A stretch of DNA of 64,000 bases from Ostrea edulis (GCF_947568905.1 NC_079166.1:9300001-9364000), one strand, 5' to 3'. Counted from the stretch's first letter, positions 24,992 through 40,273 are shown. The notes: a model not told the origin generated them from the letters alone. Translations and numbers: made by a program.

Positions 24992-25519
24992 ATGACGGAC
25001 TACGAATCACTACATAACCCGGGTACACCACGTTATGCTCTACTGTCAGATCGAGTAGCGTCGTTTGAAAATGCTCCCGAACACTTGCAGAAGCTATTAC
25101 CTACCATTGCAAAAGCGGGATACTTTTACAAAGGGTACGGGGATAACACATGCTGTTTTTATTGCAACTTTGGACTTCACCATTGGGGAGCTGTCGACAA
25201 TCCTTGGATACAACATGCTTATTGGTATCCTCACTGTCCTTACCTGAAGTGTAATAAGGGTAAACAATGGGTACGCCAAATGTTCAACGCCGTTAGCCGA
25301 ATGCGAGACACGGGGAAGGATTGGGGAGACTTGTCTGTAGACATTGTGGAGAATCCGGCTACGACGGAGAAATGTCATCTGTGTTTAGAAAGAGACTTGA
25401 GAATAGCTTTTTCACCTTGTGGTCATTTATGTACTTGTGCTATATGTGCTACGGGACTGAAACAATGTCCTATTTGTAGACATAGTGTTGAGCAAGCTGT
25501 ACGTATTTTTATTTGTTAA
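24992..25519 (+). CDS. iap: Viral inhibitor of apoptosis (single BIR + C-terminal RING), 175 aa
   Basis: BIR: RVASF..AKAGYFY..TCCFYC..WGAVDNPWIQHAYWYPHC. RING: CHLC..PCGHLCTCAIC..CPICR. AATAAA overlaps the stop. Confidence 0.9.
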   Translation: MTDYESLHNPGTPRYALLSDRVASFENAPEHLQKLLPTIAKAGYFYKGYGDNTCCFYCNFGLHHWGAVDNPWIQHAYWYPHCPYLKCNKGKQWVRQMFNAVSRMRDTGKDWGDLSVDIVENPATTEKCHLCLERDLRIAFSPCGHLCTCAICATGLKQCPICRHSVEQAVRIFIC

Positions 25520-25559
25520 TAAATATGTATGATCCCATGAACTTGTGTCATTTATCAAG

Positions 25560-26198
25560 ATGTATACCTACGAGACACTTGAGCCTTTTCAGTTGAAACA
25601 TGAATTTACCATGGTGGTGGCCGGACCCTCTAAATCGGGTAAAACAGAATTTGTGAAGCAACTGGTACAAAATACGCAGTGGATTGCACCGCCTCCCGAA
25701 AAGATAGTATGGTGTTATCGAGAATGGCAGTTCGCGTACGAATCCTTACAGGACAAGGTCACTTTTATTCGCAATATACCTCAAGACGATGAGCAGATAG
25801 TGGCGGATCTCAGTACGCGTCATCTACTCATTTTTGATGATATGATGGGAGGTAAAGCCATCGAATCGATTGTCGACTGGTTTACGCGCAAAGCGCATCA
25901 TCGAAATACCAGTGTCACTTATATCACACAAAATCTGTTTGATCGAGCAGTACAACATCGTACCATCAGTCTGAATGCTCACTATCTTGTGCTGTTTAAA
26001 AATCCTCGAGATAAATCACAGATTGGGGTGTTAAGTCGGCAATTACAAATGCCGCATTTACTTCCAGCCTATGAGGACGCCACCCGTGTACCTCACGGGT
26101 ATTTACTAGTGGACTTGAGTCCTCAGACGTCGGACGATTTAAGATTAAGAAGTCAACTCTTTACCAACTTGGCTGTGCACATGCCCCCGAGAGTATAA
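25560..26198 (+). CDS. A32/FtsK-like genome-packaging ATPase
   Basis: Walker A GPSKSGKT, Walker B LLIFDD, RKAHHRN, ITQ. First ATG is at 25560; the track start 25545 is GTG. Confidence 0.92.
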   Translation: MYTYETLEPFQLKHEFTMVVAGPSKSGKTEFVKQLVQNTQWIAPPPEKIVWCYREWQFAYESLQDKVTFIRNIPQDDEQIVADLSTRHLLIFDDMMGGKAIESIVDWFTRKAHHRNTSVTYITQNLFDRAVQHRTISLNAHYLVLFKNPRDKSQIGVLSRQLQMPHLLPAYEDATRVPHGYLLVDLSPQTSDDLRLRSQLFTNLAVHMPPRV

Positions 26199-26247
26199 AT
26201 AATGTCACATCATGGGCAGGTGTATCATTTGAAAGACAGTCTTCACC

Positions 26248-27132
26248 ATGGGTAGACCTTCCGCGAAGAGTAAATTAGTCAAAACGTTACGCCGTTTACA
26301 ACGGGAACGGGATCCCGTTCAACGGAGCCATCTCATTGAATTAGGACGTAGAGCCTTACTCAACTGGTTTGCGATGGGAGCTCGAAATTTATTGCGAGGC
26401 GTCTTACCAGGCAATAAAATCACTCAGCGGTTCATTCAATCCCATCGCCAAGACTTGAGTGTCATTGCCGATAAGAAGACCAATGAAGAAGAGCGTAAAA
26501 AAGCCACTTTGAAACGAGGAGGCGCCGGATTCTTAGGAGGGACCATTATCCGTCATTTATTCAAATGGGAAACAGGCCGTAAACCCCGTGGGGGACAACC
26601 CAAGAAAACCAAGAAACCACGGGCTAAGAAAGCTAAAAAATCGCCTCAGAGAATTCCTAAACTCATTATTCGCTTACCTAAGAAGACACCTAAGAAGTCC
26701 CCTAAGAAGTCCCCTAAGAAGACACCTAAGAAGACACCTCTGAGGATGAAGAATCCGTTTCCCAATTGGGCTCCAAAGAAAACCCCTCTCATTGTGAAGA
26801 TGCCGTTTCCCAAAGCCACTCCCCCCAAGGCCACTAGAACGTTAGCCGATCTGAAAGCCGGATTAGCTCAAAAGAAAATGGAACGACCCATGCATGGGCC
26901 TATAGGAAGTTCCAGAACCAGTGATACTGCTCTACCGAGTTTTGCTCATACCTTTGGAAGCATGAAATTTCAACCCTTAACCACCTCAACACCGGTTCAG
27001 GTGCAAAAGAAATATAAATGTAAATTTTGCCCTCTGGTCTTCAATGCGAGAGAGAACCGCAATCGTCACGAAGAGACCGTCCATCACAAGCGTTTTGATC
27101 CTAAACATCCGAGTGCCATTGTCCTGAACTAG
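26248..27132 (+). CDS. Basic core-like protein: Polinton conserved N-domain + (S/T)PKK repeats + C2H2 zinc finger, 294 aa
   Basis: N-terminus resembles ORF 27173; KKTPKKSPKKSPKKTPKKTP; YKCKFC..F..RENRNRHEETVH. Confidence 0.75.
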   Translation: MGRPSAKSKLVKTLRRLQRERDPVQRSHLIELGRRALLNWFAMGARNLLRGVLPGNKITQRFIQSHRQDLSVIADKKTNEEERKKATLKRGGAGFLGGTIIRHLFKWETGRKPRGGQPKKTKKPRAKKAKKSPQRIPKLIIRLPKKTPKKSPKKSPKKTPKKTPLRMKNPFPNWAPKKTPLIVKMPFPKATPPKATRTLADLKAGLAQKKMERPMHGPIGSSRTSDTALPSFAHTFGSMKFQPLTTSTPVQVQKKYKCKFCPLVFNARENRNRHEETVHHKRFDPKHPSAIVLN

Positions 27133-27172
27133 GTATAAAAAGGAGGGGGAAGGGGCCCCACCCTTCATTACC

Positions 27173-38482: not shown

Positions 38483-38621
38483 AGTAAATAACGAACGTTC
38501 AGAAAACACCTGTATTTATAGGTAAAGGTTATGCATCACGTGATCAAACACCTGCACCACGTGATCAAACACCTGTACGTCAGCTGGTTTTTCTACAGTC
38601 ATTCTTGTCTGACCTTCAGTC

Positions 38622-39128
38622 ATGGATACACGGAGAATTTTAAGAGCGAGACGCCGCCGCCACGGAATACAACCAGTGGAGAATTTAACCATAGTGGAAG
38701 ATTATGTAGACGAGATGGAAATCTGGGACAATTTAGTACAGAGATGTCGCCATCGATTACGCTGGGGGCGATCTAAAAATTGGTGTTTTGACTATGTATT
38801 GCGGTCACATGAAACAGTGGAGGATATTTACCTGCGTTTAAGTGACATGTACCTGAAAAATTCCCCCCTCATACAGTACATGATTTACCAGTTTTACACG
38901 TTATTGAACGGCACTCAAAAAGTATCGGGATTTATTCGACTGGAGAAACCACGCCACCGAAGAAGTGTATGGGTATTGTTTTGGGATGCACACTGGATGT
39001 GGGAAACCGTCGAAGAGATACGTTTCCCCGGGAGAAGAGCTCGACAATTAGTACAACACATTATATCCGAAGATCATGACTTACACGTGTATATAGAAGA
39101 ACCTGCGTATGAAGCCGGCCATTTTTAA
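38622..39128 (+). CDS. Degenerate CRESS-DNA (nano/circovirus-type) Rep HUH endonuclease-like domain, 168 aa
   Basis: NWCFD (motif I); YMIYQ..NGTQKVSGFI.L.KP..AHW (motif II region with HxQ lost); no YxxK. Confidence 0.55.
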   Translation: MDTRRILRARRRRHGIQPVENLTIVEDYVDEMEIWDNLVQRCRHRLRWGRSKNWCFDYVLRSHETVEDIYLRLSDMYLKNSPLIQYMIYQFYTLLNGTQKVSGFIRLEKPRHRRSVWVLFWDAHWMWETVEEIRFPGRRARQLVQHIISEDHDLHVYIEEPAYEAGHF

Positions 39129-39147
39129 AAATAAAAACTTCATGCAC

Positions 39148-39167
39148 AGCCCTTTTTAGGGCTACTT
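39148..39167 (+). terminator. Histone-type 3' stem-loop 3 (AGCCCT-TTTT-AGGGCT), weaker flanks
   Basis: 19 nt after the stop of ORF 38622-39128; 3' flank ACTTT; no clear GAAAAGA downstream. Confidence 0.55.
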
Positions 39168-39448
39168 TAAACACCAATATAAGTTCCATTCCACTAAAGT
39201 CAATGTGTACCAATGTGCACTAGCACGCGCTGGTCGCGAGAAACCGGCTTTTCAAGTTCAATTAGTGCACTAGCACGCGCTGGTCGCGCGATGTTCTAGC
39301 TGAAACCGGTTTTTCCAGAAAAAGATGATGCAACCACGTGCTCCCCACGTGCCCCCCACGAGACAGAATAGTCTAGACATTTTGCTGGCTATAAAAGCGG
39401 AGCCCCAGTGTCAGTCCTCATTCGATCTTCAATCACCTTCCAGAAGAC

Positions 39449-40273
39449 ATGGCTCAGAAACAACTAGAATTTGTGGACAAAGCTCAGAAGAAAATAGATC
39501 AGCTGGTACAGAAGCAGATGGGACCACAGAAAGACTACATTGAACTGAAGAAAGCTAAGACTGACGATCAGAAGATTGAACTGGGGAAGACCTCGAACTT
39601 GTTGCTCACGACTCCAGACTACATTGCTCGACAAGAGAAGATGGCCCAGACCTCGGATTACCTCCCTAGCCAGAATCCGACAGACCCGGGATTAGGCTTC
39701 TATTTTCCCGATTCACAGGACGCTACGGGACTGGAACTGGGCCTCTACAACGCTCAGAATGACCCTCCGACCATGAACAAAGAAGACTTTGCGATCATTA
39801 CCACGACACTAGACGGGATCGTTAACCGGATTAATGTGCTGAGTAATGAGATTGGAAATCATACCACAATCCTACTGAAGAAGCTGGAAGAGCTGACTTC
39901 TAAAAAACCTAGGAAGGAATACACTCCAGATTACACTGCTAACCCGTGCTACACGTGTGGAGAAACAGGACATTGGTCGCCGGATTGCCCACAGAAAACA
40001 GATTATCCGCAGACCAGTAAGAAATCGAGGTCAGCAGATTCTCAACAGACCAGCAAGAAAACCAAACAAAAGGATCCTTGCTTCAAATGCGGAAAAATAG
40101 GACACTGGATTAGTGAGTGTCCAGAAGAACAACTGGAAATAGATGCGATGATTGGGTCCGTACCTGGCTCAAAATCCCCTGTGAAGAGAGAATACACACC
40201 GTTAGAGATGTGGAATCCAACCGCACCTACTGAAGAACGGTCAAAAAAGAAGAAGAAACTCAGCAGAAAGTAA
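39449..40273 (+). CDS. Protein with two CCHC zinc knuckles, coiled-coil segments and C-terminal NLS, 274 aa
   Basis: CYTCGETGHWSPDC and CFKCGKIGHWISEC; TATA at 39390; AATAAA at ~40384. Confidence 0.8.
   Translation: MAQKQLEFVDKAQKKIDQLVQKQMGPQKDYIELKKAKTDDQKIELGKTSNLLLTTPDYIARQEKMAQTSDYLPSQNPTDPGLGFYFPDSQDATGLELGLYNAQNDPPTMNKEDFAIITTTLDGIVNRINVLSNEIGNHTTILLKKLEELTSKKPRKEYTPDYTANPCYTCGETGHWSPDCPQKTDYPQTSKKSRSADSQQTSKKTKQKDPCFKCGKIGHWISECPEEQLEIDAMIGSVPGSKSPVKREYTPLEMWNPTAPTEERSKKKKKLSRK

Follow-up and report, generated by a model that had tools for sequence, protein, structure and literature searches.

A young Polinton family in Ostrea edulis with a selected, partly dispensable gene cassette of probable host-survival function

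Whether animal Polintons (Mavericks) form virions and infect is a long-standing question, and their particles have never been observed (PMC8097293). The question is raised by a stretch of 64,000 nucleotides from the genome of Ostrea edulis (GCF_947568905.1 NC_079166.1:9300001-9364000; hereafter the window), of which positions 20556-40739 constitute a Polinton/Maverick of 20,184 bp with more than 100 copies in the genome. A first-pass annotation had recognized an inhibitor of apoptosis (IAP), a macrodomain, a RING E3 ligase, a protein phosphatase 1 (PP1) adaptor and four Bcl-2-like open reading frames (ORFs; here B1-B4) within this element, and had concluded that it experiences innate antiviral immunity as an infectious virus rather than behaving as a passive transposon. 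Are these genes what they were taken for, are they maintained by selection, and what might they do for the element? The family proves to be a young one carrying a genuine, selected and partly dispensable survival cassette. All eight named ORFs sit where they had been placed, inside the approximately 20-kb element delimited by its terminal inverted repeats (TIRs) and target-site duplication. Boundaries and accessory genes are located as follows (window positions):

20550-20555 and 40740-40745: left and right target-site duplication TACATG, 6 bp
20556-20888, plus strand: left TIR, starting AGTAGT (279 nt at 99% plus 47 nt at 98%)
24992-25519, plus strand: IAP of 175 aa with one BIR and a C-terminal RING; copies fall into three allele classes
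34910-35407, plus strand: macrodomain, SCO6735/Bt_1257 subclass of the ALC1/TARG1-like type
35557-36345, minus strand: 262-aa proline-rich ORF with terminal C4C4 RING-like zinc finger
36909-37256, minus strand: DP71L/GADD34-like PP1 adaptor with RVTF docking motif, W..ADR.RF.RRI and LDPIL
37091-37396, minus strand: B1, 101 aa, five-helix Bcl-2-like model, without BH1 motif
37383-37730, minus strand: B2, 115 aa, paralogue of B1, missing from one sub-lineage
37759-38112, minus strand: B3, 117 aa, paralogue, missing from 3/29 young copies and from the sister subfamily
38150-38482, minus strand: B4, 110 aa, five-helix Bcl-2-like model with BH1-like N-x-G-R
40374-40739, minus strand: right TIR, ending ACTACT

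The outer repeats (20556-20834 and 40461-40739) are complementary at 99% with ends AGTAGT...ACTACT, and the GC fraction inside the element is about 0.45 versus 0.35. Of the features described for Mavericks (PMC8097293), TIRs with (AGT)2//(ACT)2 ends and a 6-bp duplication are present, the Polinton hallmarks protein-primed DNA polymerase B (pPolB), retrovirus-like integrase, A32-type packaging ATPase and adenain protease were detected with Pfam, and two ORFs with a likely capsid identity occupy the capsid positions. Six of the seven other copies checked are flanked by a matching 6-bp duplication of their own. A search with B2 yielded 502 candidates, 150 of which were scored and more than 100 of which are near full length (52-100% identity); searches with IAP and PP1 adaptor concur on the copy number. 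Of the 60 copies sampled, 40 are represented by both halves and 20 by the right half only; presence of B2 in this sample is biased, because the copies were picked via their B2 match. Core divergence among 30 young copies amounts to 1.1%. The element is a recently amplified Polinton/Maverick, and the reading as a cluster of host genes was dropped because of the TIRs, the target-site duplications and the absence of introns.

The IAP is, judged by its sequence, certain: BIR (Pfam E 1e-15) and RING (E 6e-12) each score above cut-off, and 73 PDB sequences are matched at E <1e-5. It shares the BIR with C-terminal RING with baculovirus-type and cellular IAPs, and differs from these by its single BIR, its length of 175 aa, its intronless gene and three recombining allele classes.

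The identification of the PP1 adaptor is also borne out, by a match to Pfam PP1c_bdg (E 5e-6; 26.7 bits versus a cut-off of 26.1) and by the DP71L of African swine fever virus (ASFV) as top PDB match (E 3e-5), followed by PPP1R15B. The protein comprises an RVxF docking motif and a downstream eIF2-alpha-recruiting segment with two leucines; in common with DP71L and cellular PPP1R15A/B are the RVxF motif, the W..A.DR.RF.RRI segment and LxxxL. A further adaptor of the DP71L/PPP1R15 type is ICP34.5 of herpes simplex virus 1. Residues V16, F18, L57 and L61 are essential in DP71L (PMC5346070), and the residues aligned to them are kept in 59/60, 60/60, 59/60 and 59/60 of the copies covering each. Counted from its inner methionine the element protein measures 72 aa compared to 71 aa of DP71L, from which it differs in being Polinton-encoded and in overlapping a Bcl-2-like gene: 166 nt are shared with B1 in another frame, the docking motif lying over the B1 stop codon. 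Within the overlap, dN/dS (ratio of nonsynonymous to synonymous substitution rates) revealed constraint in neither frame, on few variants. A word-index search returned one relative of the adaptor.

The Bcl-2-like/adaptor pair overlaps in the window element, is separate in a second Polinton family and is fused in the relative P0008. In the latter (likewise in P0021), a B1-type helical domain and the PP1 adaptor share one frame; P0008 is a single short contig and perhaps a degraded copy. The second, distant family in the same genome (L063:3138-6208, L132; capsid 28-40% identical) carries a Bcl-2-like ORF, next to it the remnant of a PP1 adaptor and then an ORF fusing CARD and PC4 (Pfam E 1e-14 and 6e-10). 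More PP1-adaptor-like stretches occur in L138, L139 and L140, one beside a distant integrase, suggesting further families with an adaptor. L133:4954-5133 (minus strand) is the probable last exon of the host PPP1R15/GADD34, with 43% identity to the adaptor over 30 residues and no Polinton genes in the 10 kb fetched.

The four helical ORFs are paralogues (17-38% identity to B2) of a family with 31 representatives, for which no informative name was found in the ten clusters examined. AlphaFold2 models were obtained for B1 (pLDDT 92) and B4 (82.5), and B2 and B3 were assigned by homology. In a structural comparison with VIA-align, nine of the ten best rows for B1 are Bcl-2 proteins, as are 17 of all 50 (A179L: Z 7.6, root-mean-square deviation 3.3, 100 residues aligned); for B4 the corresponding counts are seven and 19 (Bcl-xL: Z 6.9, deviation 3.6, 99 aligned). 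With Foldseek, 42 of the 44 rows shown for B4 are Bcl-2 (best E 0.25), and support for B1 is weaker. Searches of PDB sequences with the helical ORFs returned no Bcl-2 chain, the ESM Atlas search with B2 returned nothing, and the word-index search found one relative of B4; a Pfam Bcl-2 signal was obtained for 2/27 aligned family members. The BH1 consensus is of the N-W-G-R type, as seen in host genes, and the BH1-like motif of B4 is conserved across copies (N60 58/58, G62 58/58, R63 57/58) and missing from B1-B3. In a predicted complex of B4 with a 32-residue BH3 helix, supplied by a host exon that we take to be Bak-like, G62/R63 are positioned on the BH3 Gly-Asp; runs share at least 86% of contacts, and partner pLDDT is at least 77. 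The complex scored 0.73 versus 0.01 for the best of three controls, on a scale whose mark is reached by 51/78 solved and 2/108 mismatched microbial pairs and which is uncalibrated for peptides.

The B models, 101-110 residues long, resemble viral Bcl-2 proteins (ASFV A179L, orf virus ORFV125, iridovirus GIV66, poxvirus M11L/F1L) in the order and packing of their helices across 95-100 residues, to which B4 adds its BH1-like N-x-G-R and the modelled BH3 binding. The B proteins differ by having five helices in about 100 residues, i.e., some 30 fewer over the aligned span, at 4-20% identity; helix 3 is likely the missing one. They also have no C-terminal membrane anchor, and B1-B3 lack BH1. Adenovirus E1B-19K represents a precedent for Bcl-2 in a mid-size virus. 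Taken together, B1-B4 very probably descend from Bcl-2, and the model suggests that B4 probably binds BH3; B1-B3 may have other partners or roles, for which the poxvirus Bcl-2-like proteins with other roles offer a parallel. A death-domain or CARD reading was set aside as less likely, no such row having appeared in the VIA-align results for B1 and B4. Four Bcl-2-like ORFs, as originally annotated, are confirmed as paralogues and moderately backed by the folds modelled for B1 and B4 (Z <8), and remain weak by sequence.

The macrodomain ORF alone has no Pfam match, and PHROGs and NCBIfam together contributed one macrodomain-family match. A profile of 40 of its 120 relatives matches ALC1-like macrodomains of the PDB, namely Bt_1257, SCO6735, TARG1, Poa1p and DarG (E 7e-11 to 1e-6). 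Its Gln87 is invariant in 40/40 relatives and Asn24 nearly so, aligning with Gln85 and Asn27, which SCO6735 requires for removing the ADP-ribose attached to thymidine in DNA (PMC9411070). Gln replaces the lysine of TARG1/DarG, the supporting Asn is present and the TARG1 Asp is absent, as is characteristic of the SCO6735 subclass, a class assigned to removal of ADP-ribose from DNA or protein and to genome protection (PMC9411070). Beyond the profile match and the Gln and Asn positions, the GCGLAGG loop is shared with SCO6735/Bt_1257/TARG1/DarG, from which the present protein is set apart by residing on a eukaryotic mobile element. The nearest named relatives are multi-copy uncharacterised proteins of Saccostrea cucullata (54-60%). 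The macrodomain had been rightly recognized, and it belongs to the SCO6735/TARG1 class, not to the coronavirus class: Nsp3-type (MacroD) domains, tied to antiviral suppression, carry the motif N-GGV...GIFG (PMC8120803), which is missing from the alignment, and none is found among the 15 PDB matches. In older copies (L051, L055, L056, L058, L137) the macrodomain gene is present twice in tandem, and one of the two diverges in the conserved loops.

For the full 262-aa RING ORF no Pfam match was obtained; the domain alone matches zf-RING_2 (E 7.5e-4) in 5/6 alleles. Eight cysteines in RING spacing are invariant in 6/6 alleles, down to 51% identity, and the protein is likely, as far as this ligand pattern goes, an E3 ligase. 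The earlier RING assignment thus stands on eight invariant ligands in a C4C4 variant, at Pfam scores below cut-off.

Selection was assessed on these genes and on the core and capsid-module genes, which locate on one strand:

20996-24955, plus strand: pPolB, Pfam DNA_pol_B_2 E 7e-57
25560-26198, plus strand: packaging ATPase, 212 aa, Pfam Pox_A32 E 2e-6
26248-28272, plus strand: three ORFs (294, 109 and 257 aa) conserved in all young copies, shared-variant dN/dS 0.15-0.35, from their position presumably small core/virion genes of Polintons
28254-29157, plus strand: retrovirus-like integrase with chromodomain, Pfam rve E 1e-11, Chromo E 3e-9
29975-30970, plus strand: penton-position ORF, likely minor capsid protein, 331 aa, dN/dS 0.44
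31145-31846, plus strand: basic 233-aa ORF between the capsid genes, shared-variant dN/dS 0.31
31926-33329, plus strand: likely major capsid protein, 467 aa, open in 29/29 young copies, dN/dS 0.19
33339-33836, plus strand: adenain-type cysteine protease, 165 aa, Pfam Peptidase_C5 E 2e-4, just above cut-off

We take the penton-position ORF to be the minor capsid gene from Polinton sequence pattern and position, and the 467-aa ORF to be the major capsid gene from the same pattern and its place beside the protease, both unconfirmed by any library: neither had a match in Pfam, PHROGs, PDB sequences or NCBIfam, and a capsid query found no relative among the viral contigs searched. In the window, the integrase is disrupted by an internal deletion near 29013, leaving a 256-aa ORF with the chromodomain in a different frame; it is one long ORF in 27/29 young copies.

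For 30 young copies, variants were counted against the commonest codon of each column with correction for transition bias. The core genes gave dN/dS of 0.18 for shared and 0.37 for private variants, the capsid module (penton, major capsid, protease, ATPase) 0.18 and 0.35 (p 1e-21), and the eight accessory genes pooled 0.36 and 0.62 (p 6e-9), compared to 0.9-2.0 in shifted-frame controls (1.5-2.0 over all core genes). Among single accessory genes, IAP (0.40), RING (0.39) and B4 (0.40) were significant, and B1-B4 pooled yielded about 0.53 (p 0.0035). Between subfamilies, all eight accessory genes are at 0.20-0.56 for alleles 47-80% identical, on non-independent pairs of uninterrupted ORFs. The frames of IAP, RING, PP1 adaptor and B1-B4 are open in 26-29/29 young copies. 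TATA boxes precede 11/24 ORFs by 38-73 bases versus a background of 2.3%, B2, B3 and B4 having one each, and a single poly(A) signal closes the block from B4 to PP1, 13 bases beyond the adaptor. Purifying selection on capsid genes has been read as a sign of particle formation and reinfection (PMC8097293). Since private capsid variants are filtered as well, each copy appears to have arisen recently from a selected pool. The claim that the element is no passive transposon gains support from the capsid-module and between-subfamily values; across young copies, IAP, RING and B4 are indeed constrained, and macrodomain, PP1 core and B1 vary in a neutral-like manner.

A second property of the cassette is exchange of alleles. 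Six core genes are 97-100% identical to the window in 29 young copies, and IAP, B1, B3 and macrodomain vary. The IAP is of window type in 10 copies, mosaic in 13 and of the sister-subfamily type (about 70%) in 6; B1 is represented by the sister allele (65%) in 3/29, B3 is absent from 3/29, and a macrodomain with the same internal deletion is found in 13/29. Because copies combine these states in different ways, recombination must have taken place. Polymerase, integrase, capsid and protease of the sister subfamily show 79-87% identity, its PP1 core 94-98%, and its RING and B2 about 90%. Exchange concentrates on the host-facing genes, and core genes are unswapped. A sub-lineage (L134, L135, L136, L144) with 97-98% identical capsid and protease has no B2 and other RING and PP1-adaptor alleles.

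On this basis it appears fairly probable that the accessory cassette prevents the host cell from dying and from halting translation while the element replicates and probably forms particles. B4 would bind host Bak/Bax-type BH3 helices via its BH1 arginine and block mitochondrial death, the IAP would act on caspase or ubiquitin signalling, the adaptor would recruit PP1 so that eIF2-alpha is dephosphorylated, the macrodomain would take ADP-ribose off DNA or acidic residues, and the RING protein would ubiquitinate targets. The genomic copies would be recent insertions from a selected, recombining, capsid-module-dependent pool, similar to a virus with an integrated phase. The host pathway behind this may be either the sensing of viruses or a general response to stress and damaged DNA. 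A more far-reaching version is tentative: a Polinton virus that currently replicates, forms particles and recombines its counter-defence genes, which would hold the group's first eIF2-alpha phosphatase recruiter and DNA-ADP-ribose eraser, a fluctuating minimal Bcl-2 array, and Bcl-2-like and adaptor genes acting as one unit.

Several observations weigh against a cassette serving a particle-forming phase. By sequence, the case for Bcl-2 is weak: Pfam gives E 0.0066, and this for B4 alone (17.4 bits versus a cut-off of 31.4), and HHalign a probability of 3%. All Bcl-2 Z values of B1 and B4 (6.9-7.6) fall below the reliability mark of 8 of the tool, the best unrelated row for B1 reaches Z 7.2 over 73 residues, no Foldseek E is <0.001, and Foldseek of B1 against a viral structure library gave no Bcl-2 row. 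Each model consists of five helices and lacks a membrane anchor, and the B4/BH3 score may stem from already solved Bcl-2/BH3 structures. Among young copies, macrodomain (dN/dS 0.85, p 0.39), PP1 core (1.0, p 0.6) and B1 (7 variants) are indistinguishable from neutral, and B2 (0.54) and B3 (0.53) are marginal. The macrodomain is intact in just 15/29 young copies, which, together with the losses of B3 from 3/29 and of B2 from the sub-lineage, means that copies amplify without these genes. No strict TATA match was found upstream of IAP, macrodomain, RING, PP1 adaptor or B1. The likely capsid identity of both ORFs derives from sequence pattern and position, alleles may be swapped by gene conversion between genomic copies as well as during replication, and the whole reading is built on sequence and models.

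The best-surviving alternative, unlikely and still to be taken seriously, holds that the same genes serve a purely intracellular germline transposon in damping the apoptosis, integrated stress response and DNA-damage ADP-ribosylation that its own replication and integration provoke, with neither cell-to-cell infection nor special antiviral pressure. The dispensability of several accessory genes fits this proposal, as do the class of the macrodomain, a genome protector acting on DNA-linked ADP-ribose (PMC9411070) and not the antiviral-linked Nsp3 type (PMC8120803), and the planarian Burro retrotransposons, which also bear BIR and BCL2-like cargo (PMC6431247). It is, however, opposed by purifying selection on capsid, protease and ATPase in very young copies, private variants included, by the joint occurrence of five unrelated counter-defence functions and by allele exchange centred on host-facing genes. 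Improbable is a helper-dependent or stress-triggered element, active during infection by a large virus (e.g., a mollusc herpesvirus), the cassette acting in the co-infected cell. Related Polinton-like viruses have been hypothesised to parasitize large DNA viruses (PMC11296320), and by language-model features (0.87-0.90; a lead only) the relatives of the RING domain are mostly from large DNA viruses, whereas TATA boxes and poly(A) signals of the host type are what one would expect of genes read by the RNA polymerase II of the host. That the accessory ORFs are captured, functionless hitch-hiking fragments is very improbable and already largely refuted: the frequent macrodomain deletion would agree with it, as would the neutral-like variation that young copies show in macrodomain, PP1 core and cysteine-rich ORF, but not the open frames, the between-subfamily dN/dS with retained motifs, or the recurrence of the Bcl-2-like and PP1-adaptor pair in the second, distant Polinton family.

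With respect to the survival cassette as a viral trait, spread as an infectious virus that faces antiviral immunity of the PKR-like and PARP kind is plausible. Oysters possess antiviral sensing and a PERK responsive to poly(I:C) (PMC6723221, PMC9680061), and the oyster herpesvirus has anti-apoptotic genes (PMC5869526). The specific step to PKR-like and PARP defences in the first-pass annotation goes beyond the evidence: eIF2-alpha has four kinases (PMC7376328), the macrodomain is of the genome-protection class and is deleted in 13/29 young copies, and similar cargo occurs in Burro. Presenting the arsenal as surprisingly large-virus-style was an overstatement, given that Bcl2 and IAP homologues in adintoviruses have been published (Starrett et al. 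2021, PMC8502044). With Polintons and adintoviruses (PMC8502044, PMC8097293) the element shares pPolB, integrase, ATPase, protease and capsid-position genes, TIR ends, the 6-bp duplication, a size within 12.7-24.6 kb, an accessory region and purifying selection on the core. It differs from these in that its core genes all share one strand and five types of counter-defence gene occur together, and by a DP71L-like adaptor, an SCO6735-class macrodomain, a minimal Bcl-2-like array of 2-4 genes and allele swapping between subfamilies. The terms 'macro' and 'phosphatase' are absent from the accessible main text of PMC8502044, and 'macro' and 'GADD34' from its supplement text, slide files excepted; cargo related to apoptosis, Bcl or macrodomains is likewise absent from the accessible parts of PMC11131425 and bioRxiv 10.64898/2026.10.13.758929. 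The literature searched, which lay outside subscription papers and Repbase, yielded no Polinton encoding an adaptor of the DP71L type or an SCO6735-class macrodomain, and none of the listed papers that name GADD34, ICP34.5 or DP71L refers to Polintons. The kind of element and its IAP/Bcl-2 cargo are known, and PP1 adaptor, macrodomain class, minimal Bcl-2 array and allele exchange appear to be new.

The remaining ORFs of the element are:

29124-29859, plus strand: two small ORFs, 95 aa (hydrophobic) and 151 aa, no Pfam or PHROG match
34035-34334, minus strand: 99-aa acidic/proline/basic ORF
34518-34919, plus strand: cysteine-rich 133-aa ORF, young subfamily only, dN/dS 0.87, indistinguishable from neutral
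38622-39128, plus strand: 168-aa ORF weakly like the CRESS-virus Rep nuclease domain, Pfam Viral_Rep E 0.009, below cut-off
39449-40273, plus strand: 274-aa ORF with two CCHC zinc knuckles, Pfam zf-CCHC E 3e-15

A second, different ORF resembling the N-terminal domain of CRESS-virus Rep (Pfam below cut-off or absent) was observed at L055:2222-2551, and in both Rep-like ORFs the catalytic histidine motif has, we presume, been lost. Two partial copies (L053/L065/L089) lie head to head at G000:C5, approximately 27.10 Mb, in a long inverted arrangement. In runs X1, X3 and X8, labelled as other organisms or marine metagenome, 30/30 bins are covered by elements mostly 90-99% alike, the RING and PP1 region having the lowest coverage in X1 and X3. 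Run X2 covers 27/30 bins at low depth with template-switch adaptor ends; its signal may have a DNA source, since these ends occur on both strands and the depth is low. Beyond the element, the window contains a host RBR-type ORF (IBR domain; 46124-46850, Pfam E 4e-11), a satellite array (57488-60709) in which a 165-bp unit is repeated about 18 times, with a related piece near 51473-51776, and dispersed retro-type repeat fragments at 4400-5430, 8150-9190, 15100-16140 and 47500-48170.

Being young, abundant and mostly open-framed, with a selected capsid module, the family is useful for the virion question. It would extend translation rescue of the DP71L/ICP34.5 type to an integrating element, and its B proteins are perhaps among the smallest Bcl-2-like folds. 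For the annotation of such a genome it implies that more than 100 IAP-, Bcl-2- and GADD34-like ORFs are element cargo and not expansions of host immune genes. If the particle-forming reading is true, animal Polintons would have to be regarded as genuine viruses, engaged in an arms race with the innate immunity of invertebrates, and the family of the window would be a place to seek the missing virions.

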